Of a DNA stretch of 64,000 nucleotides, positions 6,178-63,374 are shown in pieces. Position 1 is the stretch's first letter. Every line of letters begins with the position of its first letter. The notes beneath the pieces were generated by a model. It did no database searches. It had not been told where the DNA came from and saw only the letters and a program-made list of their open reading frames with translations. Source of the stretch: Podarcis vaucheri (taxonomy: Eukaryota); the NCBI GenBank assembly GCA_965113315.1, contig OZ220365.1; one strand, written 5' to 3'. The translations under genes were made by a program, and so were the position numbers.

Positions 6178-6230
<53 letters not shown>
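6178..6230. repeat. (ATT)n microsatellite
   Basis: Pure ATT run following GGGGTATAAATAATAA, which is probably a retroposon tail. Confidence 0.95.
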
Positions 6231-28063: not shown

Positions 28064-28071
28064 TATATATA
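28064..28071 (+). promoter_or_regulatory. Putative TATA box of the YR element internal promoter
   Basis: TATATATA about 130 bp inside the inferred 5' end, preceded by CAATCA (about 27985) and followed by a pyrimidine-rich tract and a CpG island. Confidence 0.5.
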
Positions 28072-28424
28072 CAGGGACCCAACTTTGGCACGGCCTCTTG
28101 GCCGTTTTCCTCGGATCAAGGAGCTCAAAGACGGTTGTATTTGAACCTACCTGAATTCTTAATTCTCGCCCTTATTTCCCCCTTTTACTTCTTTACCTTT
28201 CCCATCTCCTCCCATATTCTCTTACTCTCTCTTCTCCTACTGTTTCCCTTCTTATTCTATTGGTCTGTTTCCTTTCTAGTTTGCTCCTTTCCTTACTGTT
28301 TAACTCAGCCCTGGTTATAATTAGAAGGCTGAGGGTGGGCACCCCCCCCCCGGCCTGGGGTAGGCCTGGGAGGGCAGGCTTGCGGCCGCTTTGGCCCACT
28401 GGAACACCCCCTCCCCGATCGCTA

Positions 28425-29030
28425 GTGCCGCGGCTGCGGATCGCGGCCGTTTCCTCGCCCCGTCTCCACCCCCGCCTCGCGGTTTAGGCCTAGTAACGGC
28501 CTAGAGGTCGGCCTCCCGCCGGTGGGGCGCCACCGGACCGCGGACTCGCCGCGCTTTTCCCTGGGCCTGGGATCGCGGCCTCCCGGCTGCCGGGCCCTTC
28601 CGGGCTGCTTTTTCCCCCGACCTTGCTGGTCCGCTGGGGAGCTTCCGAGCGCCCGGCCCGGCTCCGTCGGGCGAGGCGCGGTGAGTGGCCTTGCTCCTGC
28701 TCGGCCCCAGGAGCTCGGGGTGTGGCGGAGTTTACGCGGCCGAGGATTGCCGCCGCCTCCTTGCCCCCCCACCCCTACCTGTGTTTAGGCCTAGCGTCGG
28801 CCTAGAGAGCGGTCTCCCACCGGTGGGGCTCCCGACGGGCGGCGGACGCGCCGCGCCTTTCCCCGGTTTGGGGGGTTGTGGCCTCACGGCCGCCGGGCCC
28901 TGCCGGGCTGTTTCCCCCTCCTGACCCTGCTTACCTGCGGGGAGGCTTCGGACCACGCCAGGCCCGGCTCCGTCGGTGCGGCCGCCGCGCTCGGTCCTCC
29001 GCCATTGGTGCGGCGCGCTCCTGCGTGGCC
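28425..29030 (+). repeat. Diverged tandem duplication (about 301-bp period) forming a CpG island in the YR element leader
   Basis: GTTTAGGCCTAG at 28482 and 28783, each followed by matching blocks (CGGCCTAGAG, CCGGTGGGGC, GCCGGGCCCT, GGCCCGGCTCCGTCGG). Confidence 0.8.
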
Positions 29031-29154
29031 CTAGGGGAGTGGTTGGCGCGGCGGAGCTCCCGCTAGCCCCCCTGCGGTTCTGGATCTGAGAGCAGGCCAA
29101 GGCTTCGGTGCAGCCTGCACTGTTGATTTGCCTGCTCTGGCTTCAATTGCTTCC

Positions 29155-29408
29155 TGGCCCTCTAGTGGCCGCCTGGTGTAACTGCAGGCTGCCTGCTCGT
29201 GAGCTCCCCTAGTGGCTCAGAGCAGCACTGCAGCTCTTTAGCTCATTGCTTAGAGCAAATAGAGCCACCTTCTGGCCACCTGAGTATTGCAGCCTGCTGC
29301 AATTTAACTGGTAATAGCTCTATCTAGTGGCTCGACCTGGTATTGCGCTTCATCCCACTGCGCTTAAATTGCTAGTGCCCCTGCAGGACGCAGTGAGGGG
29401 CGCACTGT
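29155..29408 (-). promoter_or_regulatory. Tandem array of 4-5 co-oriented CTCF-like sites (core plus upstream motif)
   Basis: Minus-strand reads: CTGCAGTTACACCAGGCGGCCACTAGAGGGCCA, CTGCAGTGCTGCTCTGAGCCACTAGGGGAGCTC, CTGCAATACTCAGGTGGCCAGAAGGTGGCTC, GCGCAATACCAGGTCGAGCCACTAGATAGAGCTA, and a weaker CCTGCAGGGGCACTA. These match the CTCF consensus CCAC/GYAGRKGGC with a TGCAG/A upstream module. Confidence 0.75.
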
Positions 29409-29653
29409 GTTATAATAATCATTAGAATTACTTAAATTAATTACCTTCCTTGAATTTTATTTCTGTAGTAATTTTAGTTCTTCTAGTAGTGGTTAGTCAA
29501 GGGTTCCTAAAGTGTTTTGGCTCACTAGTAGGTACTTTCCAGTGCTCCAGGGTTAAAGGCCTTTGGCCATTCTTGGTTTCCTTTATCCAAAGCTAACAGT
29601 CTGCTCGGGTTTATTGATACAGGCCTTCTTTATCCTTTGTTTAACTAGCAGGT

Positions 29654-31192
29654 ATGGCTCCAAAGAAAGCTTCAACCCGCGCTGGCACATCTGTTTCTAC
29701 AAAACGGCCTATTAAGGGGCCATCTCAAGCGCTCCGCTCTTCGGCTCCGAGACAACCAGTGGGGCGGATCCAGTCCTTGGTGGCAAGCATGGCCGGTGAT
29801 CCTGAAGCCTTGTCTCGCTTCGCAGCGGACATGGACGGTTTCCTGCAACAATGCTCCAGTCAGCCTTCCACGTCTGCACGGCCGCCTCGTCCAGTGAGGG
29901 TGTCGTCACCGGTGTCGTCTGCCTCTAGCGAGGATGGGAGAGAAGGGTTGTCAGCTGGGGGTGGCAGGGTTGATTCCCAATTAACCCAGCCTTGTTACTC
30001 ACCTGCAGTTCGCGGCCTTCCACGGAGGACAAGTCGCTCTTCCAGGAGGGCACCAGGGGGGAGGAATCCTCCGGCATCTACCAGCCGCAGGGGCAGGAGC
30101 GCCCACCCTCCCGCCGAGGTGGCGTCTGGTTCTGGCCTTTCACTCCTTGTCTCTTCTCCATCAGTCCCAGATTCAGCGCAGGATCCAGGTGCCTCTCAGC
30201 CAAATTCTGACTCGGCCTCTTCTATGGAAGATAGCTTACCAGTCCCGGCTAAGAGATCATTGGGGGGGAAGCGTCACCGCAGAAGATCTTCCCGGAAGCG
30301 TGCCAGACGTAGGAGGGCGGATTCTTCTTCATCTTATACGGGTACGTCATCTAGCTCTGACGATGAGGCTGGTAAATCAATGGAACTTTATTGGGGTTTC
30401 GGTGAGACGGCTTCTGGGCTCCCGAGGTGGGCCTGGGAACGGCGCGCCAATACGCACCGTGCTAGGTATGGTGCAGTACAAGAGTGCAGGGATGGTGTGT
30501 TGGTACCTGACACTAAGGTCTCTACCAATTCAGCCAGGGACATTATTCCTGGTTCACACTTGGCTACGAAGCTTCGGTCTAGGATATTGAATGGCCGTTA
30601 CGTAGACATTTTTAAGTTGGCCCCACCTTCGGAAGATTAAGAGAAGGGGCCTTCTTCCAAGAAGCGCCAGGGCGCTGCCACTTCAGACAGAACATTCGAA
30701 CTTTGGCTCGACTGTTTTCAAGTCTTCGCTGGTGTTGTTGTGGCAGCCTATCCTCGGAGGTCTCTTCACTTGTTTGTTTACCTATCCATTGTTCGTTCTG
30801 CTTTCACCAAAGCTGGTGAACGGGCTGCGATCAAATACGATGAAAATTTCAGGCGCCGAGCGGCCAAGATTCCCACGGCCCGTTGGGATCGTAGGGATCT
30901 CGATGTTTGGACCACCCACGTGGCCCCTTTCATTGATAAGAAAGCGCCAGAACAGCAGAAATCTAAGCCGGCAGCCTTTAGGTCTGGTCGCAGGCTTATA
31001 TGCTGGGACTTTAACAAGGGCTCCTGTCAGCGACAGGGGTGCAGATATGCCCATGTCTGTGAAAAGTGCAATGGTTCGCATGCTGCCTCCTCTTGTTTTA
31101 GTGGTCGCCGGCCCTTTCGAGGGGGCAGAGGGGGTTCTCAGCAAAGCCACAAACCAACCCCCTCCCCTGCAACTTCAGCTGCAGGGAAATGA
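29654..31192 (+). pseudogene. YR-retrotransposon ORF1 (Gag-like, about 512 codons, C-terminal Cys/His zinc finger) with one premature stop
   Basis: ORFs 29654..30640 and 30740..31192 are in the same frame, separated only by TAA at 30638-30640 (..PPSED*EKGPSSKKR..). Ser/Arg/Pro-rich N-terminus. C-terminal CWDFNKGSCQRQGCRYAHVCEKCNGSHAASSC finger, as seen in ORF1 of DIRS-order elements. Confidence 0.8.
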
Positions 31193-32798
31193 CACACTGA
31201 CCTCCTTGGCGTACACTCCTGTTCGCCTACAGCCCCTGCAGTTATGGCTGCAGTCTTACCCTAATAGGGAGGCTGCGGCCTATTTGTTCAATGGTTTTTC
31301 TGTGGGTTTTCGGATTCCTGTAGCCATGCCTCCCATGGCACAGAATCCTGCTAATCAAAAGTCAATTCGCGAGCTGCCTCAGGTCGCTCGCAAGAAGATA
31401 GCGAAGGAAGTGGCCATGCAGTGCATGGCTGGCCCCTTTGATAGACCTCCCTTTCATAATTTGCATGTATCCCCATTGGGTATCGTGCCTAAAAAGGCCC
31501 CTGGTGAATTTCGTTTAATTCATAATTTGTCACATCCCACAGGCACGTCAGTCAATGACGTTATTCCTCCAGAGCTATGCTCCGTAAGGTATGCTTCTCT
31601 TGATCAAGCGATCAAGATGATTAGGAAGTTCGGCCATGCAGCATTATTGGCGAAACGCGATATTGAATCAGCCTTTCGCCTTTTGCCAATTCACCCAGAG
31701 GACTTTTGGCTGCTTGGCTTTCAGTTTGAGGGCAGCTATTACTTTGACAAGGCCATGCCTATGGGATGTTCCGTGGCATGTGCCGCCTTTGAGGCATTTA
31801 GTACCTTTTTGGAGTGGGCCCTAAAATTTAAAACAGGTTTGGGCGGAGTCACTCGTTATTTGGATGATTTTTTATTGGCCTCGGCGAGCGATTCTGGCGA
31901 GTGCGCAATGTTGCTGCAGGCCTTTGCTGACATTACGCAGGAACTGGGAGTTCCGCTTGCAGCCGACAAGACGGAGGGTCCTTCCACCCAGCTCACTTAC
32001 TTGGGTATCCTATTGGATACTGTGGCTCAAACTTCCAGCTTGCCAGAGGACAAGTTGGTTGCTTTGAGGAGGATCATTGAGGACCTACTTCCTCTGAAAA
32101 AGGTGTCTCTCAGGCAGCTCCAGTCACTTTTGGGACACCTGAATTTCGCCTGTAGAGTGGTGGCCCCCGGGCGCCCCTTCTGTTCACGCTTGGCGCGCCT
32201 CACTGTAGGGTTGAAGGCTCCGCATCATCGGGTTCGCCTCTCTAGTGAGGTGCGAGCGGATCTTCGGATCTGGCTTGAATTCCTGAAGGAATTCAATGGG
32301 GTGTCCTTATGGCAGGACACTTTGAACCTGCATAATGACTTCCAGGTGCATTCCGATGCGGCAGGCTCCTTGGGTTTCGGCCTATATTGGAAGGGTCGAT
32401 GGTGCGCTCAGCGTTGGCCGGCTGAGTGGCAGGGAAGTGAGATTACGCGGGATCTAACTTTTCTCGAGTTTTTTCCAATTGCAGTGGCAGTACATTTGTG
32501 GGTCGAGGAGTTCAGGAACCGCCGTGTCTGCTTCTGGACCGATAACCAGGCGGTGGTGAATGTGTTGGCCAAGCTTTCATCTCGCTCGCCCAGGGTGTCT
32601 GCCCTTTTGCGAGCATTTGTGCTGCATTGCTTACGTTGTAATATAGTTTTTTCTGCACGTTTTATTCCCGGGGTGTCAAATGAAATTGCTGATGCTCTGT
32701 CCCGTTTTCAGATGGAGCGGTTCAGACTTCTGGTTCCAGAGGCGCGGATACGTCCGGAATATTTCCCGGATCATCTCTGGAACCTTGGCAGCAATTAG
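30732..32798 (+). CDS. Reverse transcriptase-RNase H of DIRS/Ngaro-type retrotransposon (real start probably about 31100-31190; overlaps ORF1 in another frame)
   Basis: Uninterrupted frame. RT motifs SPLGIVPKK, FRLIHNLS, KRDIESAFRLLPIHP, MPMGC and YLDDFL. RNase H motifs SDAAGSLGFG, LEFFPI, TDNQAVV and NEIADALSR. Confidence 0.93.
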   Translation: MLLWQPILGGLFTCLFTYPLFVLLSPKLVNGLRSNTMKISGAERPRFPRPVGIVGISMFGPPTWPLSLIRKRQNSRNLSRQPLGLVAGLYAGTLTRAPVSDRGADMPMSVKSAMVRMLPPLVLVVAGPFEGAEGVLSKATNQPPPLQLQLQGNDTLTSLAYTPVRLQPLQLWLQSYPNREAAAYLFNGFSVGFRIPVAMPPMAQNPANQKSIRELPQVARKKIAKEVAMQCMAGPFDRPPFHNLHVSPLGIVPKKAPGEFRLIHNLSHPTGTSVNDVIPPELCSVRYASLDQAIKMIRKFGHAALLAKRDIESAFRLLPIHPEDFWLLGFQFEGSYYFDKAMPMGCSVACAAFEAFSTFLEWALKFKTGLGGVTRYLDDFLLASASDSGECAMLLQAFADITQELGVPLAADKTEGPSTQLTYLGILLDTVAQTSSLPEDKLVALRRIIEDLLPLKKVSLRQLQSLLGHLNFACRVVAPGRPFCSRLARLTVGLKAPHHRVRLSSEVRADLRIWLEFLKEFNGVSLWQDTLNLHNDFQVHSDAAGSLGFGLYWKGRWCAQRWPAEWQGSEITRDLTFLEFFPIAVAVHLWVEEFRNRRVCFWTDNQAVVNVLAKLSSRSPRVSALLRAFVLHCLRCNIVFSARFIPGVSNEIADALSRFQMERFRLLVPEARIRPEYFPDHLWNLGSN

Positions 32799-33682
32799 TC
32801 CTTCAGGGAGTAGCGGCATCGGTTTCCCCTTCTACCTTGAGATCTTATAGTAAAGCATGGGCCGATTTTCAGGCATTTGTACAACAGTCAGCTAGGTTAC
32901 TAGTTGGGGTCCCCCCCACCTCTTCGCAGGTGCTACAATATTTAGCCCATTTATTTCAGCTAGGGCGTGCGGGTAGGACACTTAGGATGCAGGCAGCTGC
33001 TATATCATTTTTCTGTAAGACACATTTTGATACCGATCCTTGTGCAAAATTTGTTGTTTGCAGAGCCCTAGAGGGTTGGGGCCGTCTATGTCCTTCTCAG
33101 CCGACAAACCGACGCCCCATCTCGTTTGAATTATTGAGCAAGATGCGCAAAAGTCTGAGGGTGGTGTGTTGGTCTACCTATGAGGCTCGCCTTTTCGCGG
33201 CTGCCTTTTCAATCGCCTTCTTTGGAGCTTTGAGAGTAGGTGAATTGGTAGTGGAAGACCACCGGGATGGTCGTTCCAGGGGCCTTCTGCTCCAGGATGT
33301 GCAATTATCCCCTGCTGAACTGAGAATTACGATTCGGTATTCAAAGACGGATCAGAGGGGCAAGGGCGCTCTCATTTGTCTTCCTGCCACTGGGGCGGCA
33401 GGCCCTTGCCCAGTAAAGGATGTTAATAAGTATCTAGCGGTGCGAGCGCACGGGGATGGGCCGCTGCTTCGGCACGAGAATGGGTCACCCCTTACAAGGC
33501 ACCAGTTCGCAGGGGTGATGCGTAAAGCTATCCTGGCCTGTGGTGGCGTGGCCACAGATTTTGCCCCCCATTCCTTCAGGATAGGGGCTGCCACGACTGC
33601 AGCTCATTGGGGTTTGTCAGCTGCTAGAATTCAGGATTTGGGGCGTTGGAGGTCAAATGCGTTCAAGGGATATGTTCGTTAA
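32714..33682 (+). CDS. Tyrosine recombinase (phage-integrase family) of the retrotransposon
   Basis: Catalytic motifs FGALRVGEL (R), SKTDQ (K), HSFRIGAAT (H-x-x-R), GRW and KGYVR (Y). The frame is open from 32693 and overlaps the RT C-terminus. There is no ATG before the domain (the ORF track starts at TTG 32837). The start given is the first full codon after the putative acceptor at 32711. Confidence 0.92.
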   Translation, partial: GAVQTSGSRGADTSGIFPGSSLEPWQQLVLQGVAASVSPSTLRSYSKAWADFQAFVQQSARLLVGVPPTSSQVLQYLAHLFQLGRAGRTLRMQAAAISFFCKTHFDTDPCAKFVVCRALEGWGRLCPSQPTNRRPISFELLSKMRKSLRVVCWSTYEARLFAAAFSIAFFGALRVGELVVEDHRDGRSRGLLLQDVQLSPAELRITIRYSKTDQRGKGALICLPATGAAGPCPVKDVNKYLAVRAHGDGPLLRHENGSPLTRHQFAGVMRKAILACGGVATDFAPHSFRIGAATTAAHWGLSAARIQDLGRWRSNAFKGYVR

Positions 33683-33725
33683 CAATTTTAGTGTCTGATA
33701 CTGTTTTGGTTTATTTATCCCAGGT

Positions 33726-34298
33726 CTGCCAGCCGTACGCGTCTGGATGGTGGGCCACAGCATCATCCATTGGGCTGGTGTCGCAGCACGGCAGTCCGGA
33801 TTGGGTCCAGGTCTCGGCCTTCCTTCACACGTTCGGGTGTCCTGGCTGTCCAGATGAGGAATGCGGTGGTCGGAGTTTTTGCCACGAATTCGAAGGCAGT
33901 TGCTCTTGGAAGGGCCGCCAGAGGCTATTGTGGTGCAGCTGGGAGAGAATGACCTGGTTGCCATGGACTGCTTATCATTACGTGCTGCAATTTTGGCTGA
34001 CCTGGAGACGCTGCGGGCAATGGTGCCCACAGCCAAGTTATTTTGGTCTAAGCTTTTGCAACGACGCGTTTGGTTGGGAAGTCGTTGCCCGGTTGCCACA
34101 GAAAGGGCCAGGAAACGCATCAATGCAGCAGTTTCCAAAAGGATTGTGGAACTGGGTGGAGAGGTGATCTTTCACCATGAAATCTCCTATCCTGCGGCAG
34201 CTCTCTTTAGGGCCGATGGAGTGCACCTTTCTGCTTCTGGGAATGAGGTTTGGCTAGGTGCGGTGGTGGCCAAGCTGAGGTCTTGGCTGGGGTTGTGA
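33726..34298 (+). pseudogene. SGNH/GDSL hydrolase (esterase) ORF of the retrotransposon, with one premature TGA
   Basis: Block I VWMVGHS (33741-33761), block II RxGMRW, block III QLGENDL and block V DGVHLS. In-frame TGA at 33855-33857, probably CGA>TGA CpG decay. The downstream part is ORF 33861..34298. Confidence 0.85.
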
Positions 34299-34648
34299 GT
34301 GGTTTGGCGGTGAGCTGAGGGCTCTATGGCGGTTAGGTGCTGGTTAAATTGGTGCTTGGAGGGGTAAGTGCCTACCCCTCCAAATGAGGCGAATGGGAAT
34401 TCCGTTAAAGGAAATCCAGGGGCTTGCCATTCTTTTGTCCTTGTCCCCGGAGTCGGACTTGGGCCGTGCAAGCCCCACAGGAACATGAGGGTGAGAAGTA
34501 ATGGTCTGTTTCCCGGCTTTATTTCTCACCCAATACTTGTTTCCCACGCTGGCTTCCGCTGGTGTCCGGAAGGCCAGCCCTGTCCCTGAGGGCAAGGACA
34601 GATAGTCATAACCAGTGCCTAAGCAACCACTCACATTTTTTGTATTTG

Positions 34649-34654
34649 AATAAA
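34649..34654 (+). terminator. Polyadenylation signal of the YR element
   Basis: AATAAA about 95 bp from the inferred 3' end, followed by a GT-rich tract (TGATGTGTGAAGTGTG). Confidence 0.6.
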
Positions 34655-36612
34655 GTTGTGGCCAAAATTATGCCAAAAACCTTAAACAAAAATTGATGTG
34701 TGAAGTGTGAATTATTGGGGGGCTACTGTGACTCAACACGCAACCTAAGAAATGTGTTTTGTTTTTAGCTGGCTGCTTTCAGAATTTAACAGTAGCAGAG
34801 AGTGAATTTTGCTGTAATAATTGTATAAAGATTTGCTTCCCTTTATATAAAAAAATCCAAATTGATAAAATGGTTTGCCAACTCCATGTCCTCTTTATAA
34901 TTAAAACCAAATCATTAACTCAGTTGGGCATCACTGCTCATGTGTGAAGGAACACTCTGGAACACACAGGGATATTGCAAACCTAATTGTTTTTGACACT
35001 GACAATATTATTAAAGGTCCCCTTTGGATTGTCAGGTAATGTTACAGTCATTTGAGTTCTACACATTTAAGTACCTGATGAAAAAGTAAGATTCGTCATT
35101 TACCATAAAAGGAGCAGAGCTTCTTCTTCTTTTTCGTAGGCCCAAAATTCAGAGCGCAAAGAGTATTTAAAAACACACTTGCATTTGCTGGCCTTTGAGA
35201 AAAATTCAAATGCTTTGAAGCTTCCAGATTCACTCTTTGGTTCAAAACCTTTGGGAAGTGTGCCTGAATATTTTCAACAACATTTCTGCTCGGGTTAATG
35301 CAGGAATCATTGCAGCCATGTTTTAAATGGCTATATTTGCTGGATAATTACCATTCATTTGGCAATAAGCTAGATTCAGCCTGCTTCATAGAGTGCTGCA
35401 GTTTTATTTAATAATTTAAGCCACATTTCTGTTTGTTCAGTACCAGCTCAAAATACTTTGTAATGCTGGCAGTTCTTTGCCTGTTTATAATTTATTTATC
35501 CCATTATTCTTGGATTGCAGACCTAATCGTTCCACTAGGTTTGTTCTTTTGAAATAACTAGCAATACATTTATGTTTATGGATGATATACGTAGGCTATA
35601 TTTATCATGCCGCTTCTGATTTGACATGCTGCTTGGGCTATCAAAGATTATCTGAGGAACTTGATGCACCGTACTGAAGGTGTTAAGATAGGTTTAAGGT
35701 GCTATTTTAAGGAAATATAAATTGCTTGGGAAGAGCCATTCATTCTTCTTTAACTTGAGGTAGATTTGTGAAGCCATTTGATGACCTGACTGTGAGTTCC
35801 TTTCCTTCTGCATTTTCCTATGTGCTGTAGGGTTGCACAATTTCATTTAGGAACTTGGTAGCTGTGCTGCGACATGGGAAGGAGGGGAAAGATCCCTCAC
35901 TCACTTCATGCAGATCCTTCGAAGGCCTAGTCCTGAAATGCATACCATTTGAATGGCAATGTCCATCAACTGTGGGGGGCCCTAGCCCCTAAAATATTTT
36001 ATTGGGGGGCTGAAAGGACCTTAGCCCCTAGGAGTTGGCTCCTATGGTGCACTGCTTAGGGTGACCTGCTTACACATCACCAAAACAGAACACCAGAAAA
36101 AGAGACTGCAGATTTTCAATTTAGATGAATAGGTGCCAATTTAGAAATGATGGATTGTATCCAACTATGTTTTCTTCAGAGTAGACCCACAGGACATGAA
36201 CAGACCCAAATTAGTTATGTCCACTAATTTCAGTGGGTCTGTTCTGAATATGACTAATGCTGGATACAACCTAGTTACAGCACCATAATTTTAACAGAAA
36301 TGCAAGACATCTGCAGCTACAAAAGCTGAGGCTGCTGAACAAAATATTGGACAGGGGTCTGCCAAGGGGCATTATTGCTGTTAATTTTTTTGGATCTTAC
36401 AATTTATGTGGAAATTGTTCTATTTGGTTGGGTACTTTTTGAAATTCTGTTTATTGTTTATGACTACTTTTGTTACGTTTCTAGTCGTGTATTTTTTTTA
36501 AGTTGTAAGCTGCATTGGACATTATTTTAACTTTAGAAAGACAGTATACAAATAAAATGACTGATTGACTGATTGATTGGTCTCACCATAGTGGGAAAGG
36601 CTATGACCGAGT

Positions 36613-44774: not shown

Positions 44775-45000
44775 CAGTGGTACTTCGGGTTGCATACACT
44801 TCAGGTTACAGACTCGGCTAACCCAGAAATATTGCTTCAGGTTAAGAACTTTGCTTCAGGATGAGAACAGAAATTCTGCTCCAGCAGTGCAGCAGCAGCA
44901 GGAGGCCCCAATAGCTAAAGTGGTGCTTCAGGTTAAGAACAGTTTCAGGTTAAGTACGGACCTCCGGAACAAATTAAGTACTTAACCCGAGGTACCACTG
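44775..45000 (-). mobile_element. Tc1/mariner MITE, family A (inverted)
   Basis: Same TIRs and TA flanks; internal sequence is reverse-complemented. Confidence 0.85.
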
Positions 45001-54200: not shown

Positions 54201-54336
54201 GCACAATATTGCCTTTGAGCAATGTTTTGAGCCAGGGTTGGTTGGCCCAAATAGATTGGCCAGCAGGCGACACAGTTTTCAAGAACTAACCTCAGTAGCA
54301 GGGAACACTTGGGGAAGTCTGGCCTCTAAATACGTA

Positions 54337-54562
54337 CAGTGGTACCTCGGGTTAAGTACTTAATTTGTTCCGGAGGTCTGTTCCTAACCTGAAACTATTC
54401 TTAACCTGAAGCACCACTTTAGCTAATGGGGCTTCCCACTGCTGCCGCGCAACCGGAACACAATTTCTGTTCTCATCCTGAAGCAAAGTTCTTAACCCGA
54501 GGTAATATTTCTGGGTTAGCTGAGTCTGTAACCTGAAGCGTATGTAACCTGAGGTACCACTG
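54337..54562 (+). mobile_element. Tc1/mariner MITE, family A
   Basis: Same TIRs and TA flanks. Confidence 0.85.
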
Positions 54563-55473
54563 TAATTATATTACATACCTCCAACAACTCAAGGCGAAAA
54601 ACCAGGACACTATCTTCAGGGGCTGCACTCCTGCATTAGTCATGTGACTAGTGCAAGATTGCAGCCCTGGAAAAAAAGCACGGTATGAGATTGCAGCACA
54701 AAATTGTGGTGCCCCAAATGGCCACTGCACTCTCAAGCAAAAAACCAGAATGTCCTGGTTTTATCGGGACATTTGAGGGGCATGATATTACAGATCAAAT
54801 ACTTTTAAAACAGCACAGGCAATCATGTCTTGTGTCTTCATGTCCATGTATATCTTTGTTTCCCAATGTCTGTTTGCATTTTCTCAGAAGCATTTCTCTA
54901 CTTAAGAGGCGCCTAGCATTTTCCATTCAATTTCACTTGCTCAGTATTTTTGCCCAGGAGAGTTCCAGGTGTCAGCTTGCTTGGTTTTGTGGATTGTAGC
55001 AAACACAGAGCGATACTGCCCTAGGCCTTAAACTGTTGGATGTTTGAAAAGAACAACAGGGAAGAAAATGCTTCATTATTGTGTCGCTATGCCCTTTCCC
55101 TGAAGCACTGGCAAGCAGCATCAATTCCTGCCAACAGGACACTCTTCTGTGTGGACGAATGACCCCACCAATTAAACAATGTTTATGCCCTGCCTCTTTC
55201 AATGATTTTTTGGCTAGCAAAATGTTTAGGATTGAATTGGAAAATAAATGTCTGTGAAAATAGGGGGGAGGGAATGTTTTTCTATCCATCTTATTTATTG
55301 CATTTATAAGGGACCTCATAAAATACAACTTTGGGGCTTGGTGCAAAGATCAAAATGACTAAAAATGTAACAATAAAACTATCCTACAATACAATACACA
55401 GGAACTAAATTAAAAACCAAATGCACAACCAGCACAATAAGACCATATACAGCACAGAACCAAAACAGCCAGC

Positions 55474-55816
55474 ATACCCTCTAACATTTCTCCGAAGAAA
55501 ATAGGGACGTCCCACTCCATAATGATAATTTTACTATTTATACCCCACACATCTTATTGGGTTGCCCCAGCCACTCTGGGAAGCTTCCAACATATATAAA
55601 AAACATAATAAAACATTTAACATTTAAAAAACCTTCACTATACTGAATTGCCTTCAGACTGCTCAGGGGTCAGGTAACTCCATGCCCTCTAACATTTCTC
55701 CAGTGAAAATAGGGATATCCTAAGGAAAAGCAGGCATTTTGGGATCAAATCAGAGACTGGGACAGCTTCTCTAAATCAGGGATGTCCCTGGAAAATAGGG
55801 ACACTTGGAGGGTCTG
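55474..55816. mobile_element. MITE-like element with CATACCCTC / GAGGGTCTG termini
   Basis: Imperfect TIRs and an internal duplication of CCCTCTAACATTTCTCC..GAAAATAGGGA. A related shorter element lies at about 54574-54784. Confidence 0.5.
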
Positions 55817-55959
55817 AGCCAGCAAATGCATTTACTAAAACCACCCACTATTCCACAGGTAGTTAAAACCAGCTCTTTAAAAGACCCAGGAGAACAGAAA
55901 AGTATAAACATTGTGCCAAAAAAGGAATATAAACACCAGAAAAGATTCCCTAGGAAAGC

Positions 55960-56544
55960 ATGCCTTTGTAATAGGTCCACCACAAAAGGCCTCCATAAAC
56001 AGAAACAAAGAAAGTCACCTTATACTGAGTTAGACCAGCTGTTCTCTTCAGTAGTGTCTACACTGGCTGGCAGGATGTGAGCAGGTACATACAGGAGACA
56101 CCATTAGGTACTGATGTCTAAGTCATGTATGGCTTTGTTTGTCAAAACTATCACATGGAATGAGGCCTGGAAATGGATTGTAAGTCAATGTGAGCAAGAA
56201 AGGACCAGTTTGATGCATTCATCATGCCTGGTTTCAGTTAATGCTTCCCTCTTTTTTTGTACCTACTCAAGTTTCCAGACCATCTTCAAAGAAAACCCTA
56301 TGTAAAACACATTACAATAATCCACATGGGAGGTTACTAAAAATTGTTCACTTCAGGCAGATTGACCACCCCCATACAGGGTTGCATCCTGGGATACTAG
56401 TCTAAGCTAGTATAAGGTCTTCTGTGCCACCAATCCCACTTGAGCCTTCATGTACAATGATGGAGTCCAGAGCACCCCTGAGCTACGCACCTGGTCCTTC
56501 AGTGTGTGTGTGGCTTCCCCCCTTCAAGAATCCCACTTATCCAG
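55960..56544 (-). mobile_element. Degraded L2-type LINE ORF2 fragment (3' part of a split copy)
   Basis: Minus-strand remnants LKDQVRSSGVL.. and LVTSHVDYCNVFYIG..KL*VQK resemble the L2 RT C-terminus. The left boundary is approximate. Confidence 0.65.
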
Positions 56545-57040
56545 ACTGTGGAACCACCTATTGGGTTCCCAGTCACGATGCCACCCATCCCTGTGGGACG
56601 CTATAATTAAAGTGCGAGAAACAAAATAGGATAAAAATGGCCACAACTTTATTGATTTCAGATGTAGGTGGACTTTAGCTCAGGCATTGGGTGTATATCC
56701 ATTTCAGGCTCCTGCTAGAGTGCTGAAACTTTTCAGGGTCAGGCCAAGGATTTTTGGCCTCCCCAAGAGGCTAATCTACTAAGGTAGCCATCCTCAGACC
56801 ACCACTGGAATCTCTATAGCCTGTTTGCCCCACGCTTGGCTTCTGAACAGAGATTTCCATCCAGATCCCTCTAATGGGGTACTCTGAATATCCTACTGGT
56901 TGAGGTCCAGGTGATGCACCTATTCACCCCAAACCTTGATGAATTCCACCTGATGCCTTACCCACCCTAAGTTGTGGTGCCTTGCTATGGGGTAGACAAA
57001 ACCTCCAAATGAACCCAATCTGTTTGTAGGCAAATTCCTT

Positions 57041-57784
57041 TTTTTTTAATAAAATTTTTATTGGTTTTACAGAAATTTTTTATAACAAACAAACATATAA
57101 AAAGACAAACAAACATGCATAATTTCATAATATCTTTTCTTAAACTTCTTTTCTGCGACTCCCCCATACCTCCCCTTTCTGCATCCTCATGTCCAAATTT
57201 TTATAGCAACTTGTAACTGTTTTTTCCACTCTAATTCATCTTAGTCCTTTCTTAATCAAATCTTACATTACTGCAACCCTTTCTTTCTAGAAAACCTCGA
57301 CATTCTAACATTCATCAAGTTTATAATAGTCCTTGAGATAGATCTTAAATTTCTTCCAGTCTTCTTCCGCAGTCTCCTTTCCCTGATCACGAATTCTGCT
57401 AGTCATCTCCGCCAATGTCATGTAGTCAATCACTTTCATCTGCCACTCTTCCAAGGTGGGTAGGTCTTGTGTCTTCCAATACTTTGCGATCAGTATTCTT
57501 GCTGCTGTTGTTGCATACATAAAGAAAGTTCTGTCCTTCTTTGGCACTAGTTGGCCGACAATGCCCAAGAGAAAGGCCTCTGGTTTCTTAAGGAAAGTAT
57601 ACTTAAATACCTTTTTCATTTCATTATATATCATTTCCCAGAAAGCCTTAATCTTCGGGCATGTCCACCAAAGATGATAAAAAGACCTTCAGTTTCCTTA
57701 CATTTCCAGCATTTGTTATCGGGCAAATGGTAAATTTTTGCTAGCTTGACTGGGGTCATGTACCACCTGTAAATCATTTTCATA
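57041..57784 (-). mobile_element. 5'-truncated L1-clade LINE
   Basis: ORF2 C-terminus with CWKC..H..C knuckle region (frameshifted) and poly(A) tail. 20-bp TSD TGTTTGTAGGCAAATTCCTT at 57021-57040 and 57785-57804. Confidence 0.9.
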
Positions 57785-58081
57785 TGTTTGTAGGCAAATT
57801 CCTTCCTGGCTCTGAATACGGCAATCATTGGGAACCACATGAAGGTCAGTTAGAGTGCAAGGAGGTGAAACGAGGTCAGAACAAGACAAAGTACAGTTCA
57901 GCATGAAAGAGAGGGAGAGTTTGCTCTTCTGCCGACTGCACTGAAAGTGCCAGGTGGAGTTGGCTTTTAAAGGTAGCCAGCAGACTGCAGTGGTGGACTG
58001 CCTGTCCCGGTCCACCAGTGAAGCTTCACTCACCGAGGTGCCCATGATTGGGCAGTTAAAATTAAGGTATATTGTGGGCAT

Positions 58082-58551
58082 TGTTACCATAAAGCACCAA
58101 TGCAGCAGCAAGCAAAGGCTTCAGCAGCTCAGTCAGCTGCTTGTGGCTGGAAAGCCAAACAGGATGTTTGTGACTGTTGCCATGGAAACAAAGGGGCAGT
58201 CCATTCTGTACTGAGCACCGGATGTTAGCTCAGAGTGTGAGTCATATGACCTGTACTGGAAGTAAATGTGTGGAGTTTCTTCTTGCTGTTGTCGAGTGCA
58301 GACATGTTTTCTCTGTACTGATATGAGAGACAGAAATAAAAGATGTAAATAGTTTTCTGTCTGCTTCTTTCCCCTCCTGGGGGACACCAAAGGGGAGAGA
58401 GGAAGAACGGTGTGTTCCTCTCACACATCTGAGATGAATCGCCGAGACCTCGCCTGCTTATCAGCAGAGTGGAGACGCGGGGAGGTCGACAGGAATATCT
58501 GCCGGTGCCTACGCTGTGGCACATTCCTCTGACCCAGGCAGAATTCCAGCA
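58082..58551 (+). repeat. 5' LTR of copia element
   Basis: TGTTACC...CCAGCA, a direct repeat of 61623-62092. I saw one mismatch (CCAGCA versus CCAACA). AATAAA at 58335. Confidence 0.95.
58176..58244 (+). promoter_or_regulatory. RFX X-box and AP-1 motifs in the copia LTR U3 region (duplicated in the 3' LTR)
   Basis: GTTGCCATGGAAAC at 58176-58189 and TGAGTCA at 58238-58244. Confidence 0.55.
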
Positions 58552-58552
58552 G

Positions 58553-58570
58553 TGGTAGCAGAGGATGGTT
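58553..58570 (+). promoter_or_regulatory. Primer-binding site complementary to the 3' end of initiator tRNA-Met
   Basis: TGGTAGCAGAGGATGGTT, 1 nt after the 5' LTR, is the reverse complement of the vertebrate tRNA-iMet 3' end (..AACCAUCCUCUGCUACCA). Confidence 0.9.
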
Positions 58571-59105
58571 GCTGTCCATCGGACATCTGGATGAGAGGTT
58601 GGTGAATTGTCCTCCTCTGCTTCCATGGAAGCCTGAAGTGAGAGGCTGATTCTCTGCAGCCAGAAGCTGACCAGAAGAAGCTGACAGCCAAGCAGATACT
58701 CAAGGTACGAGACTTTTAAGGGCTTAAAAGAGTGAATGCAGAATGATTCATTCTCTGCTTCACGGAAAGCGAGTGTGGGAAAGCAGCTCCAACTTAGAAG
58801 AGGACTGCATTCCAGGCATTCTTGTGGTTTCCTGCTCAAGGAAAGGAATGCGCTGTTGCCTAGCAACGTCCTTCAGAAGGCTGTGCCTCAGAGAGGAGAA
58901 ATGGAAAGTTACTCGGAGGGCTGGACAGTCAGACTATGCTTCAGAGAGGCGAAAACAAAGTTTTGTTATGACTAGGTCCTCACGAACTGCTGGAAGGGAC
59001 TTTCCAACGCAGCCAGTGTCAGAGTTGCCAGGTGTCAAGAGTGTAAACAAGCCAGCTATTGGATTTTAGAGGCTTGTGTTTTTAGAGTCACTGCAAGGAC
59101 TCAAA

Positions 59106-61769
59106 ATGGATGCCAAGAAGGGGGGAGGCTTGCCTTCTCCACCCCTCCTGACCAATGACAATTATTCATCTTGGTCTGTAAAGATGAAGGCCCTGCTGCA
59201 GAATCAGAGACTGTTTGGGGAGATTGAGAATCCCATCCCTGCAGCACCAACGCGTGCTTGGGAGTCACAGAATGTGAAGGCTAGGACTGCTATAATTCTG
59301 TGTGTGTCAGACTCGCAGCTTGTGCATATACAGCATTTGGAATTTGCGCAAGAGGTTTGGAACACGCTGCGTACAACGCATCAGAGAGATGCTGGTTCTT
59401 CAGCGTTGCTGTATTTTGAGAAGTTGACCAATCTGAGATTAGCGCCTGATGGAGATGTTCAAGCGCACCTGACAGAGATGAAGTTCCTGCGTCAACAAAT
59501 GGTGGAACGCAATTTCCGTCTACAGGAGGAAGTGTTTTGCTTCATGATAATAAACAGCCTAAACCGGACCTACAAGGTTGTTGCCAGTCAGCTTGGTTCG
59601 CTACCTGCTCAGCAGCTAACCGCGGAAAGGGTCTGTGCCGTCGTCCTGAACGAACACGACAGACTTGCTGCACTGGAAGTGAAAGACAGAAGGAGGCAAG
59701 AACAGAGTTCAAATCTTCCCACTGATGGTGCTACTGGAGAGCATGCCATAGCATTGAGTGCCGTCCGATGCCACAATTGTGGACAGACTGGGCATCTACA
59801 GCGAAATTGTAGGAAGCCGCGACAGTCAAGAGGAGCCAAGAACAGCTCAACGAAGCCTGAGGCGTCAAGCAAAAGCCGTACCAAGTGCCAGGTGAATCCT
59901 GCAAAGGCTATGATGGCGAAAGGAACCACGCCAGATGTTGGGAACGCATTCATAATCGATACCGACGCCACGAAGCATCTCTGCCCACACAGAGAACTGT
60001 TTTCGACGTTGAAGAAGCAAAGCTTCACTGTGAAACAAGCCAACGGTCAAGAACTGGAAGCGACCGGAATTGGAACTGTGTATCTTGAAAGTCTGAACTT
60101 GACTATAAGCGATGTTTACCTGGTTCCAGAACTGAAATTTAGTCTGCTGAGTGCTTCGCAGATTGCAAAGAAGGGACTAAAACTGTACTATGATGCTAAA
60201 AGATGCAAGATCTACAAAGATGGAGAACTGTTTCTTACTGCTAAAGAGAAAGATGGACTGTATTTGTTGACTTTTGATCAAAGTGATTACATGAAATGTA
60301 ATACTTCTGATTCTAACGAAATTTCTCTTGCAGGTGTGACCAGTGTGAACACCAGGAAGGTGTCCAAGAAGGTCCACAGAGCTTTTCAGCGGGTGTATGC
60401 TGATGTGATCGGTCCTTTAGAACCATCTAGAGGCGGTGCAAAATATTACCTTGTGTGTGTTGATTGTTACACAAATTATTCTTGGGTTTATATGATGAAG
60501 AAACCGCAGGAAACTTTAGAAAAGTTTCAGGAGTTTTGTGACAAGGTTAAAAGTATGCATGATGCTAACATTGATTGTCTTTTCACAGATGAGAAGCCAG
60601 TTTTTCTTTTACAGGATTTCCAGAGGTTCCTGGATGAGAAAGGGATAAGACACAAACTTGCCACTTCCGAAGAAGCATGGAAGAAATGTGTCTGTGTTAG
60701 GGTGAACAAAGAATTGCAAAAGGGGATGCATGCGCAATTGCTAAGTTCACATTTGCCACATGATTATTGGGCTGAATCTTTAGCGTCCTATCTTCATGTG
60801 TGGTTGAGGAAAGTCTCAACAGAGTTGGGATGTTCTCCTTTTGAGAAGCTGTTTAATAGAAAACCTTCTGTTGCCTATTTTAAGGTTTTCGGGTCTCATG
60901 TGAGAACAGAAACTCCAAGTGGGGTAAAGAATGCCAGAGGCATCTTTGTAGGTTATGAAAAAGGTCTCTACAGAGTAATTTTGTCTGAATCTGGTCAGGT
61001 GATTCTCACAAAGTTTCTAGAGAGTGCTCCTGAACGGGAAAGAGTGATTGTTCAAACTTTTTCCACAGATGATTCTGATGATGATGATGATGATGATGAG
61101 TTTGATCTTATTGAGTTCAGTGGTACTGATGATGAAGACACTGATAGCTCAGACAGCTCAGTTGTCACAGTCATTGAGAGGAAATCTCAAATGATGACTA
61201 GACCCTCAGAAGAGGAAGATAAACCACAGATTAAGCTTAGTACTGGTTCTCCAAAGAGTTCAGAGGCTGAACCAGAAAGCAGAGAAGAGCAGCAGCTCTT
61301 ACGAAGGTCTGAGAGAGCAACGAAGGGTATACCACCCAAGAGGTATTCAGAGGAGTTTGCTAACCTAGCATATGTTGCTGTTGTAAACGATCAAGGACAG
61401 ATTGAAGCAGTGTCTAAGTCAGAGACAAAGGCACAACAGAGAGTTGTTAACCAAGGAAATGCTAAGTCACACAACCAGAGAGGTACATTGGTGAAACCAG
61501 TGGCGGGTAGTTCCAAGGGTGGAACTGAAACAACAGGGGAATGTTATAAGTATAACAACTGTTTGTTTTCTTCTCTGGATGACGCTTTGCTCGCAGCACG
61601 CATTGATACTTTAGGGGGAGTATGTTACCATAAAGCACCAATGCAGCAGCAAGCAAAGGCTTCAGCAGCTCAGTCAGCTGCTTGTGGCTGGAAAGCCAAA
61701 CAGGATGTTTGTGACTGTTGCCATGGAAACAAAGGGGCAGTCCATTCTGTACTGAGCACCGGATGTTAG
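59106..61769 (+). CDS. Copia Gag-protease-integrase-like polyprotein (887 aa from ATG), lacking RT/RNase H
   Basis: Gag N-terminus LTNDNYSSWSVKMKALL, zinc knuckle CHNCGQTGHLQRNC, protease IIDTDATKHL and GIGTV, GLYLL, integrase core VYADVIGP..VDCYTNYSWVY..FTD..WAE..FKVFGS..GIFVGY, and post-IN LRRSERATKGIPPKRY. The stop codon lies inside the 3' LTR. Confidence 0.9.
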   Translation: MDAKKGGGLPSPPLLTNDNYSSWSVKMKALLQNQRLFGEIENPIPAAPTRAWESQNVKARTAIILCVSDSQLVHIQHLEFAQEVWNTLRTTHQRDAGSSALLYFEKLTNLRLAPDGDVQAHLTEMKFLRQQMVERNFRLQEEVFCFMIINSLNRTYKVVASQLGSLPAQQLTAERVCAVVLNEHDRLAALEVKDRRRQEQSSNLPTDGATGEHAIALSAVRCHNCGQTGHLQRNCRKPRQSRGAKNSSTKPEASSKSRTKCQVNPAKAMMAKGTTPDVGNAFIIDTDATKHLCPHRELFSTLKKQSFTVKQANGQELEATGIGTVYLESLNLTISDVYLVPELKFSLLSASQIAKKGLKLYYDAKRCKIYKDGELFLTAKEKDGLYLLTFDQSDYMKCNTSDSNEISLAGVTSVNTRKVSKKVHRAFQRVYADVIGPLEPSRGGAKYYLVCVDCYTNYSWVYMMKKPQETLEKFQEFCDKVKSMHDANIDCLFTDEKPVFLLQDFQRFLDEKGIRHKLATSEEAWKKCVCVRVNKELQKGMHAQLLSSHLPHDYWAESLASYLHVWLRKVSTELGCSPFEKLFNRKPSVAYFKVFGSHVRTETPSGVKNARGIFVGYEKGLYRVILSESGQVILTKFLESAPERERVIVQTFSTDDSDDDDDDDEFDLIEFSGTDDEDTDSSDSSVVTVIERKSQMMTRPSEEEDKPQIKLSTGSPKSSEAEPESREEQQLLRRSERATKGIPPKRYSEEFANLAYVAVVNDQGQIEAVSKSETKAQQRVVNQGNAKSHNQRGTLVKPVAGSSKGGTETTGECYKYNNCLFSSLDDALLAARIDTLGGVCYHKAPMQQQAKASAAQSAACGWKAKQDVCDCCHGNKGAVHSVLSTGC

Positions 61770-62092
61770 CTCAGAGTGTGAGTCATATGACCTGTACTGG
61801 AAGTAAATGTGTGGAGTTTCTTCTTGCTGTTGTCGAGTGCAGACATGTTTTCTCTGTACTGATATGAGAGACAGAAATAAAAGATGTAAATAGTTTTCTG
61901 TCTGCTTCTTTCCCCTCCTGGGGGACACCAAAGGGGAGAGAGGAAGAACGGTGTGTTCCTCTCACACATCTGAGATGAATCGCCGAGACCTCGCCTGCTT
62001 ATCAGCAGAGTGGAGACGCGGGGAGGTCGACAGGAATATCTGCCGGTGCCTACGCTGTGGCACATTCCTCTGACCCAGGCAGAATTCCAACA
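61623..62092 (+). repeat. 3' LTR of copia element
   Basis: TGTTACC...CCAACA, preceded by the purine tract AGGGGGAG and followed by TSD GGCAT. Confidence 0.95.
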
Positions 62093-62206
62093 GGCATATC
62101 CCACCCTGCAATGAGGCTGGCCCAAATAAACTACAATGGCTAGCTGTGGATGAGAATATCTGTATCTGGGGAGAGTGGCCAGCCCTCGAGGGGCCACAAC
62201 CGCAGC

Positions 62207-62345
62207 CGTCCCAGAACAGATTAAGTTGCCACTAACAGTGTCACTGTCTTGTCTGAACTGAGCTTGTTTGTGATCCCTCATCCAGTCCATTACCACAGCC
62301 AGGCACCGGTCCAGCCGTTCTACCACCTCGTCACACTCCAAAAAC
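62207..62345 (-). mobile_element. Degraded L2-type LINE RT fragment (upstream part of the same split copy)
   Basis: VERLDRCLAVVMDWMR..K.. resembles the L2/CR1 motif L..CL..V..WM..NKL.LN..KT, which normally lies just upstream of the 56544 segment. Confidence 0.65.
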
Positions 62346-63374
62346 GGAGAATTAGAGCTGCGTGCTTCCAACTCTGTCTCAGGCACTGACTATAAAGGTC
62401 ACACTTCTGTCCTGTTTCCTAACATTCATTTAATGCTGCAGTACCCATTACATTATGGAACTGTGCCCTTTTGATCAATATACTTCCATGTCACACTAAA
62501 TTTCATTCACACCAGTGTGTGTGGTGTGACACAAGAATGAATGTCATGGAGCAACATCACTATTTGACCACCCTTTCTGCACATGCATGTTTCTGTCCCC
62601 CCATGATTCTCCCATGAAACTGGTGGGAAAGAACTGTTTGCTAATATACCACCCCAAATTTAATCACTCTAGCCCCATGATTAGCTTTTAGGCTCAATAG
62701 AAGCAATCAACAAAGAAATAAACTTCCTCTATATTCTGCTAAATATTCAGAGGCGGCTTTTACACTGTGTTAAAAATCACATCAAATGCAAAAATTATCA
62801 AGCAAGAAAACCTTCCAGAAAACAAAATACACTACCATCTAAACGCAGCCCAGGACTGTTTAGAGCAGCATGATGTTGCTTTAAAAGTAATCTGCAAATG
62901 AGGCCTTAGCTTGTGTGAGGATGCTGAGGGTTTTCTGTGTTTTTCAGTTTTGATAAAGCTTTCAATTATTATTTTAACCATGGTTTTAATATAATTATAT
63001 TTTGTGATTGCTGAATGCTCCCCTGGGAGGAAGGGCATGTTAGAAAACGAATAAGTAAACTCATCATCATCATCATCAACCCACAATTCCCTGGGAGAGG
63101 GATTTAAGTCATGTTACCATTTCAATTTGGATATTGGTCCACAACCCTAAGGCACTTTCACACATCACAATTCCCAACATGGAGATCACTCTCTGCATAG
63201 CATATAAACCATTTGAAACTTAGCTGAAAAAAGAAAAGAAAAGAAAAACCACCACAAAGTATACTGATCAGAGATTGGGCAGGCAATATGAGCAGAGGCT
63301 CATGGTGGTTTCTGTGCAAGAAACTGTAACATATGAAACAGCCTTAAGTGACATTTCGCTAGCCATATACTGAG

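Follow-up and report, generated by a model that had tools for sequence, protein, structure and literature searches.

A stretch of 64,000 nucleotides of Podarcis vaucheri (contig OZ220365.1 of assembly GCA_965113315.1; termed the window throughout) carries a short non-coding insert on its minus strand, which the first-pass annotation had read as a miniature partner of a 6.8-kb tyrosine recombinase (YR) retroelement in the same window. Does this locus hold a new miniature mobile element, or can the motifs common to both sequences be explained otherwise? According to the analyses described below, the insert is most likely an ordinary recombination leftover, not a novel miniature mobile element.

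Anatomy of the insert and its nested insertions

The insert of 0.89 kb is the non-coding remainder on the minus strand once a nested L1 and a nested copia element are excised. The features of the locus, in minus-strand order, are as follows.

62229..62389, minus strand: upstream half of the interrupted LINE, C-terminal part of an RT
62099..62228, minus strand: 5' piece of the insert, start of the putative A repeat, with motif 1 at 62206-62197 and 62180-62170 and a terminal hairpin at 62221-62159
58082..62093, plus strand: nested copia-type LTR element
57805..58081, minus strand: middle piece of the insert, rest of the putative A, with the CAATCATGG box at 58050-58042 and a TATA-like box at 57971
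57041..57784, minus strand: nested L1 3' end of 744 nt, 5'-truncated, with poly(A)
56559..57040, minus strand: 3' piece of the insert, putative B repeat, with a G-rich tract, the 16-mer and GTGACT
55950..56558, minus strand: downstream half of the interrupted LINE, without tool confirmation and with an approximate lower limit

The letters A and B are putative assignments drawn from the sequence rather than mapped repeats, because the parent family was unseen and the 6.8-kb copy is without A2-B2. Both excisions were delimited by TSDs, one of 20 bp for the L1 (57021-57040 and 57785-57804) and one of 5 bp for copia (58077-58081 and 62094-62098). The earlier finding that about 0.9 kb remains on the minus strand was thus confirmed, with 881 nt for the ends given there and 889 nt for ends at 62228 and 56559. 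The join of three pieces proposed there agreed with this anatomy, except that the third piece starts at 62099 instead of 62098 because 62094-62098 is the copia TSD copy. The 744-nt fragment, which we take to be L1 following the label of the first-pass annotation, was 84-86% like two further copies in the window (36665-37149 and 48934-49411). Copia is a young insertion; its LTRs of 471 nt (58082-58552 and 61623-62093) differ by 1 mismatch, and a single 899-codon frame with gag, zf-CCHC, protease, integrase and SH3 was found without RT/RNase H. In the middle piece of the insert the TATA-like box lies 79 nt downstream of the CAATCATGG box and is followed by a pyrimidine-rich tract. The 3' piece holds the 16-mer with AATAAA at 56653-56638 and GTGACT at 56576-56571, and it ends near 56559.

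The insert had been described as free of ORFs. This was correct for any meaningful ORF, while the longest stop-free frame comprises 146 codons, including a 110-aa ATG ORF, both at chance level (48/1000 and 89/1000 shuffles, respectively). Between A and B no coding sequence was found. Searched in the form in which the window contains them, the pieces gave no Pfam or Atlas match. Coding remnants were sought by tblastx against the 6.8-kb element and by tblastn of 120 YR homologues, and these small pairwise searches yielded scattered short matches only (best E 0.014 and 0.013, respectively). A second copy of the insert was not found in the 64-kb window by BLASTN and nhmmer. Self-BLAST detected no ICR-like match within the insert, self-BLAST and the end scan no terminal inverted repeats, and the longest internal exact direct repeat was 10 nt. 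Rfam at gathering thresholds reported 0 structured RNA or ribozyme matches for the whole window. A sigma-70 promoter scan, irrelevant for a eukaryote, gave nothing.

Ends of the insert

The boundaries had been placed where an L2 LINE is broken. The flanking LINE halves are presumably L2. The only tool match for the flanks as a LINE was weak (RVT_1, E 0.023) and was obtained on the related record P0121, which matches 62371-62224 and terminates at the same stop; it does not show whether the insertion is orthologous or the break came later. One L2 protein search of the flanks gave 1 short match and further ones nothing usable, and full-length L2 proteins employed for locating the break gave 0 matches among 18 and among 51 candidates. 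The presumed L2 break puts the probable ends near 62228 and 56559; compared to these positions the earlier 5' end fell short by about 22 nt, and the 3' end overran by about 14 nt. The terminal hairpin supports an extent of the insert to at least 62221. At these ends, which depend on the presumed L2 break, no TSD was found. Scanning about 70 x 70 candidate end pairs yielded 12 repeats of 5-6 bp, and the 6-bp repeat 62214-62209/56572-56567, being one of these 12, was treated as chance. None of the scanned end pairs combined TG..CA with a flanking direct repeat of at least 4 bp; the minus strand has TG at 62218 and CA near 56562. Palindromic att-like junction sites, judged by eye only, were inconsistent between the insert and the 6.8-kb element and are not claimed.

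The 6.8-kb element

The larger element of the window was composed as follows.

27937..34733, plus strand: 6.8-kb Ngaro-like YR retrotransposon, measured motif to motif
29654-31192, plus strand: gag with one stop, assigned by position and a CCCH finger
30606-32798, plus strand: RT/RH, in frame (RVT_1, E 1.6e-11)
32693-33682, plus strand: YR (Phage_integrase, E 8e-5)
about 33702-34300, plus strand: SGNH with one stop (Lipase_GDSL_2, E 2.5e-5)

The frames of gag, RT/RH and YR overlap, and SGNH follows YR. With this gene set it is a lacertid Ngaro-like YR retrotransposon, and its actual ends may be some 10-35 nt outside the motif-to-motif limits. A methyltransferase (MT) family was not reported by the domain search. 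Copies of the head or tail that would represent A2-B2 or split direct repeats were found neither in 21000-42000 nor elsewhere in the window. The element is Ngaro-like by gene content and not a structurally complete member. Among the 120 matches listed for the YR, 17 carried the name Podarcis muralis, at 53-85% identity. In a YR tree computed from database proteins, with no reference Ngaro, DIRS or PAT elements, 16 rows formed a lacertid clade in which at least 3 Podarcis subclades could be told apart. The parent of the insert could come from one of several divergent YR lineages that lacertids possess.

Comparison of the insert with the 6.8-kb element

All four motifs of the first-pass annotation were found in their places and in the same order in both sequences, with offsets of 1/27/140/773/850 in the cleaned insert and 1/17/49/6713/6792 in the 6.8-kb element. 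Only the 3' similarity passed blind tests. The best non-self match of the insert in 64 kb was the 3' tail of the YR element (rank 1 of 1,358 tiles), on the same strand and at the same place relative to the end, with whole-window E-values of 0.045 (BLASTN) and 0.049 (nhmmer). An exact 16-mer is common to both, a length reached by 1/1000 shuffles. Two of the 222 window tiles reached this level, both over the YR tail, and the next best had 12. From AATAAA to GTGACT 77 nt were counted in the insert versus 79 nt in the 6.8-kb element. The nhmmer match continued for about 70 nt upstream of AATAAA (34577-34673), so that the earlier description of the two sequences as otherwise dissimilar was a little too strong. 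Using strict chaining, 0/400 shuffles and 0/486 decoys were as good, and the 16-mer alone remained. For the last 150 nt the second-best tile was an unrelated repeat tail at 55501-55720 (60.0 versus 62.5), and with finer tiling it scored 67 versus 66 for the YR tail. The 3' part of the insert matches the putative B repeat, the tail of the element, at motif level only.

At the 5' end the motifs were weak or at chance level. The longest common word on this side was 9, which 845/1000 shuffles reached, and the chain score of the 5' half was reached by 595/1000. A gapped score for the 5' end was equalled by 57/2000 shuffles and 12/944 window pieces, and the YR 5' end came 68th of 5,788 tiles when the scan was anchored at the ends. 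The permissive chain score over the whole length was exceeded by 7/486 decoys and by the reverse strand of the insert itself (53.7 versus 37.5); it is therefore unreliable and was dropped. The insert shows a head-plus-tail layout, which includes a pyrimidine tract followed by a G-rich tract. The distance from the CAAT-like to the TATA-like box is 79 nt in both sequences, and a head of 426 and a tail of 445 nt add up to 871 nt versus 889 nt for the insert, the spacing and the length agreement both being after-the-fact observations. The proposed relation to a YR retroelement held as a likely Ngaro-type link carried mainly by the 3' end, with the 16-mer beyond chance and the 5' motifs not convincingly so. 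The view of the motifs as mobilisation signals had to be narrowed, as the best ones resemble promoter and polyadenylation signals; candidate recombinase signals would be confined to the outermost short words, which are statistically the weak ones.

Origin of the insert

We favor, as somewhat more probable than not, an origin of the insert as a solo A+B split-direct-repeat unit. The YR retrotransposon behind it would be Ngaro-like and SGNH-bearing, probably of a family sibling to that of the 6.8-kb element. By analogy, such a unit may be seen as the Ngaro counterpart of a solo LTR, a type of relic already known elsewhere. A full A1-ORFs-B1-A2-B2 element would have integrated into an old LINE copy via its tyrosine recombinase without TSD; the missing TSD is observed, the YR route we infer. 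Recombination of A1 with A2 would then have dropped the ORFs and left A-B, as for solo LTRs and with a precedent in print, and this would explain the same motifs in the same order without mobility. Into this remnant the L1 and, very recently, the RT-less copia would have inserted, an order indicated by the TSDs and the LTR identity. What distant families would have kept in common are the promoter boxes of A and the poly(A) signal of B, perhaps along with short recombinase or end signals.

Split-direct-repeat elements are thought to need an internal B-A junction for restoring their ends. A transcript running from the internal promoter to the poly(A) site would miss both ends of the insert, and the remnant is probably not mobile, because the repeats observed to be absent leave no B-A junction from which the ends would be rebuilt under the accepted model. 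Independent retrotransposition of the insert is doubtful. Nevertheless, the present data do not discriminate between passive persistence and mobility of the A-B unit.

Comparison with known systems

MITEs are short and non-coding and retain the ends of a larger element. In contrast to these, the insert has no terminal inverted repeats, no TSD and no demonstrated high copy number, and its partner is a retroelement instead of a DDE transposon. The proposal of a MITE-like non-autonomous family found no support, with one copy in the window, neither TIR nor TSD, and no internal B-A junction.

For the Ngaro elements of Cafeteria burkhardae solo AB repeats were described and explained by recombination of the 5' and 3' repeats as for solo LTRs, and Ngaro types within one genome can be without common nucleotide similarity (PMC8547959). 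Like the insert, these solo AB repeats are isolated ORF-free A+B Ngaro units; however, their parent A1-ORFs-B1A2B2 is known, while that of the insert is unseen and belongs to a lizard host and the SGNH-bearing group. SIRE of Trypanosoma cruzi corresponds to A2+B2 of VIPER, and was read first as a non-autonomous element and later equated with the split direct repeats; VIPER, its parent, makes no TSD, and the mobility of SIRE was left open (PMC6681497, PMC12278014). Both SIRE and the insert are short non-coding head-plus-tail forms of a YR retrotransposon. SIRE is about 430 bp long, multi-copy and matches the ends of its parent directly (PMC6681497, PMC12278014), whereas the insert has 889 nt, occurs once in the window and has only motifs in common with the 6.8-kb element. 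In Xenopus, DIRS-53_XT and DIRS-54_XT carry gag, RT/RH, YR and SGNH in overlapping frames, the gene set of the 6.8-kb element, and Ngaro-like copies and one consensus without SDRs were reported (PMC9210276). The A (236 bp) and B (152 bp) of DIRS-53_XT make up a smaller unit than the 889 nt of the insert, and the available text holds no mention of a solo unit among these Xenopus elements (PMC9210276). TOC1 of Chlamydomonas is a non-autonomous DIRS-order element (PMC9940879). It provides an example of a mobile non-autonomous partner of YR retrotransposons. With a length of several kb, TOC1 retains the complete split-repeat arrangement, in contrast to the insert. Literature on lacertid Ngaro solos was not found in a search of the openly accessible papers, nor was a paper with the phrase "non-autonomous Ngaro".

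Alternative explanations

A clean insertion without TSD would also fit an independently mobile, non-autonomous A-B family of the SIRE or TOC1 kind, as first proposed for this locus. Ngaro proteins would move it in trans, either as a YR-excised DNA circle or through RT from tandem (A-B)n arrays, which would provide the missing junction. The 5' hairpin of the insert (z -3.3 to -3.6) agrees with this, but 10/400 window tiles also reach z <= -3 and the hairpin of the 6.8-kb element is weak (z -1.8). Further points in its favor are the lack of A2-B2 in the 6.8-kb element, which would fit an integration of single-junction circles, the mobility left open for SIRE (PMC6681497) and the term non-autonomous DIRS element for TOC1 (PMC9940879). 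Nevertheless, the insert is a single copy in the window and has no internal repeat >10 nt, and its low CpG ratio (0.23 versus 0.33 for the window) together with two later insertions suggests an old, inert copy; we consider mobility in trans unlikely. Quite unlikely, in turn, is a mobile A-B class produced by circle resolution, in which a lacertid Ngaro-SGNH recombinase would split a two-junction circle into A-ORFs-B and A-B circles that integrate separately. The two products would be the 0.89-kb insert and the 6.8-kb element, which has no A2-B2, and the folded single-stranded 5' hairpin would perhaps be the recombinase site.

The order of promoter and poly(A) signal (U3-R-U5-like), the size of 0.9 kb and the TG and CA near the ends are also consistent with a solo LTR of a conventional LTR retrotransposon or ERV, in which the context of the poly(A) signal would have become alike by convergence or old exchange. 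However, the 16-mer and the GTGACT spacing match the YR element specifically, and the scanned pairs held no TG..CA ends with a flanking repeat, where old mutations could mask a TSD; we consider this origin improbable. An identical head-plus-tail anatomy would be expected if an A-ORFs-B copy from a sibling Ngaro family had lost its interior in a single deletion event not driven by homology, and truncated Ngaro copies are common in Xenopus (PMC9210276). Since such a deletion would often be expected to leave coding or long 5'-UTR remains and none were detected, we judge it very improbable. The window E-values, the chance level of the 5' motifs and the fact that the motifs had been picked with both sequences in view would suit a non-coding repeat of other origin, or several fragments joined together, with one 16-mer in common by chance. 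The shuffles for the 16-mer, the strict chaining and the position of the match on the poly(A) signal, equally distant from the end in both sequences, argue against such a coincidence and make it the least probable of the readings.

Meaning for Ngaro elements

As a solo A+B remnant the insert is ordinary, yet useful in annotation. Because they have no ORF, TSD or TG..CA ends, solo A+B pieces are readily classed as solo LTRs or left among the unknown repeats. Replication of vertebrate Ngaro elements is still a model, and a comparison of solo pieces across families offers a cheap mapping of their promoter, poly(A) and end signals. If circle resolution were true, A-B units would be vertebrate mobile mini-elements and the conserved end words would mark the recombinase site. 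If solos move alone, this would settle for Ngaro what SIRE left open, a mobile element versus a remnant, and the recombinase of a eukaryotic retrotransposon would then have a minimal substrate.

Nested insertions and boundaries of the insert

A non-coding piece of about 0.9 kb on the minus strand (the insert) lies in three parts between about 56559 and 62228 and was compared with a 6.8-kb tyrosine recombinase (YR) retrotransposon in the same window (the partner). The features concerned are:

27937-34733, plus strand: partner, a Ngaro-like YR element with gag-like frame, RT/RH, tyrosine recombinase and SGNH hydrolase
57041-57784, minus strand: L1 piece, 20-bp TSD
58082-62093, plus strand: copia element, 471-nt LTRs with one mismatch, 5-bp TSD

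After removal of L1 and copia, 881 nt were left between the ends first assigned (56545 and 62206), and inspection of the cleaned sequence bore out the four motifs in the order given by the first-pass annotation. The copia element is very young (LTRs 470/471 identical) and carries one intact frame of 899 codons, which holds gag, protease, integrase and SH3, lacks RT/RNase H and enters the 3' LTR; it looks like an RT-less non-autonomous copia. Two further truncated copies of the L1-like 3' end were seen at 36611-37413 and 48654-49466 (84-86% identity). Four copies of a repeat of ~235 nt with inverted ends (4502-4735, 15905-16142, 44769-45003 and 54321-54569; 87-94% alike) belong to a genuine MITE-like family of DNA elements that has no relation to the insert.

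The ends had been placed where an L2 LINE is broken. Translation of the flanks gives ...DKTVTLLV and GGSTVWI... for the two sides, which we take to be successive segments of a squamate L2 reverse transcriptase; on this assumed identity the break is put near 62228 and 56559 and the length at 889 nt. Further searches on the L2 identity of the flanks gave no support. A record of 50 aa (P0121), a close relative of the LINE fragment, resembles RVT_1 weakly (E 0.023, positions 165-191 of the 205 in the profile) and matches 62371-62224 (-) with the same stop. It may represent the orthologous locus of a related lizard, and its stop is compatible with an orthologous insertion as well as with a break located a few bases deeper.

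Irrespective of the L2 identity, the 5' end of the insert can form a hairpin (62221-62210 with 62170-62159) with z -3.6 (0 of 200 shuffles), and z -3.3 in a second run. When the insert was started at 62206, the outer stem was lost and z was -0.8, which suggests an element start upstream of that position; values of z <= -3 were also found in 10 of 400 window tiles. The 5' hairpins of partner (27901-27944, +) and insert (62221-62159, -) both carry TGTTCT in the 5' arm, with different partner arms, and differ in strength (z -1.8, weak, versus about -3.4).

The claim that the insert has no ORF stood in so far as no meaningful ORF is present: a stop-free frame of 146 codons with a 110-aa ATG ORF was at chance level (reached by 48 and 89 of 1,000 shuffles), the pieces tested had no match in Pfam or Atlas, and a search for a YR-element coding remnant in the insert found none.

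The neighbouring Ngaro-like element

Split direct repeats (SDRs) in the order A1-ORFs-B1-A2-B2, with A as head and B as tail, are the defining feature of Ngaro elements. The gag-like frame of the partner contains a CCCH finger, and matches were obtained for RT/RH (RVT_1, E 1.6e-11), recombinase (Phage_integrase, E 8e-5) and SGNH hydrolase (Lipase_GDSL_2, E 2.5e-5). One stop each was found in gag and SGNH, while the RT/RH and YR frames are open. No copy of head or tail was present nearby or elsewhere in the 64-kb window; the partner is best written A-ORFs-B. Amphibian Ngaro-like elements are described with the same gene set, and Xenopus copies without SDRs are reported (PMC9210276). The YR protein has 680 relatives; among the best 120, 17 are named Podarcis muralis and 1 Lacerta agilis, and the SGNH frame shares 96-97% with two P. 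muralis proteins. A YR tree with 28 rows (the window's YR and 27 named matches out of 30 chosen, 3 being excluded for short overlap) placed the partner inside a lacertid clade of 16 rows with at least 3 Podarcis subclades; thus, sibling families exist.

Two GC-rich, CpG-rich repeats of ~245 nt (28429-28670 and 28735-28976, 74% identity) lie in the long non-coding stretch at the 5' side of the partner, and in its tail an imperfect palindrome of 28 nt (34356-34383, +) directly follows the SGNH frame. By eye, the partner's motif-defined ends (27937-27946 and 34734-34744) form an imperfect inverted repeat of ~10 nt, which the insert lacks.

Similarity of insert and partner

The similarity that had been claimed for both sides exceeded chance at the 3' side, for an exact 16-mer with AATAAA, and was weak at the 5' side. 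The 16-mer was reached by 1 of 1,000 shuffles, and in 222 window tiles this length occurred only in the 2 over the partner's tail (next best 12). Strict-penalty chaining left it as sole survivor, with a score that none of 400 shuffles and none of 486 decoys reached. The gapped 3'-end score was equalled by 3 of 2,000 shuffles and by 3 window pieces out of 944, nhmmer extended the match ~70 nt further upstream (E 0.049), and the partner's tail ranked 1 of 1,358 tiles for the last 150 nt of the insert. Other results speak against the 3' match: window-wide E-values were only about 0.05, the last 35 nt by themselves ranked 163 of 11,590, and an unrelated repeat tail (55501-55720) nearly reached the partner-tail score and slightly exceeded it under finer tiling. 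When as many as 3 mismatches were allowed, 28 of 100 shuffles also gave two matches to the 16-mer, the two real ones being exact. A common repeat tail at 55519-55574 (-) and 6134-6188 (+) (82% identity) is presumably an L2 3' end; the former possibly forms the end of the LINE that the insert interrupts, and its likeness to the last 45 nt of the insert is taken as chance.

At the 5' side, the shared 9-mer was reached by 845 and the chain score by 595 of 1,000 shuffles, the gapped score was equalled by 57 of 2,000 shuffles and 12 of 944 window pieces, and anchored scans gave ranks of 68/5,788 and 314/5,776. A 13-mer pattern, drawn from the two sites themselves, occurred 2 times in the window versus 0.28 expected (5 of 100 shuffles). 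When chaining was permissive and spanned the whole length, the score was matched in 8 of 600 shuffles and in 7 of 486 decoys, and the reverse strand of the insert scored higher.

Origin of the insert

Judged from its sequence, the insert reads as a partner-type head joined to a tail. In both, a CAATCATGG box lies 79 nt ahead of a TATA-like box (we assume these names for the promoter-like boxes), followed by a pyrimidine-rich tract, a G-rich tract and a poly(A) signal, with GTGACT 77 or 79 nt past the signal. Head (426 nt) and tail (445 nt) of the partner add up to 871 nt versus 889 nt for the insert; these correspondences were recognised post hoc. For an element with split direct repeats, A+B is precisely what head and tail make together. 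On balance we favour the insert as a passive solo A+B unit of a Ngaro-like element, whose parent must be another family than the neighbouring element, since the two share motifs only. A full element would have entered the LINE through YR integration, and A1 x A2 recombination would then have left A-B. Two elements later entered the insert itself, which lacks an ORF and a TSD, holds no internal repeat >10 nt and has a low CpG ratio of 0.23.

The first-pass annotation had proposed a mobile, MITE-like non-autonomous YR family. Its link to the YR element is likely, mainly on the 3' similarity, while a mobile A-B family appears unlikely and is less favoured than the passive unit. By accepted analogy, the B1-A2 junction restores the ends in Ngaro elements. 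For DIRS-1, a transcript without ends is described, and their restoration requires the ICR (PMC7192593). As a lone A-B offers no template of this sort, by this analogy it should not retrotranspose as a monomer.

Still less probable is a recombinase that splits a circular intermediate into two circles, A-ORFs-B and A-B, each integrating separately, which would account for both partner and insert; the partner lacks A2-B2 altogether despite open RT/RH and YR frames. A conventional solo LTR is a little more doubtful again; no TG..CA pair among the end pairs scanned has a flanking repeat of at least 4 bp, and no TSD was found at the inferred ends. A one-off deletion we regard as very unlikely, and chance resemblance, to which the 5' scores would conform and the 16-mer would not, as slightly more so.

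In the literature searched (outside Repbase, Dfam and subscription papers) no lacertid Ngaro solos and no "non-autonomous Ngaro" were found, and "non-autonomous DIRS" was met for TOC1 only. Like the solo A+B proposed here, AB repeats standing alone are on record for Ngaro elements of Cafeteria, likely from recombination of 5' and 3' repeats (PMC8547959). Likewise, SIRE of T. cruzi, once taken as a non-autonomous VIPER, is described as A2+B2 of VIPER, with its mobility left open (PMC6681497, PMC12278014). Solo AB units are a kind already known, and the insert is probably a new example.
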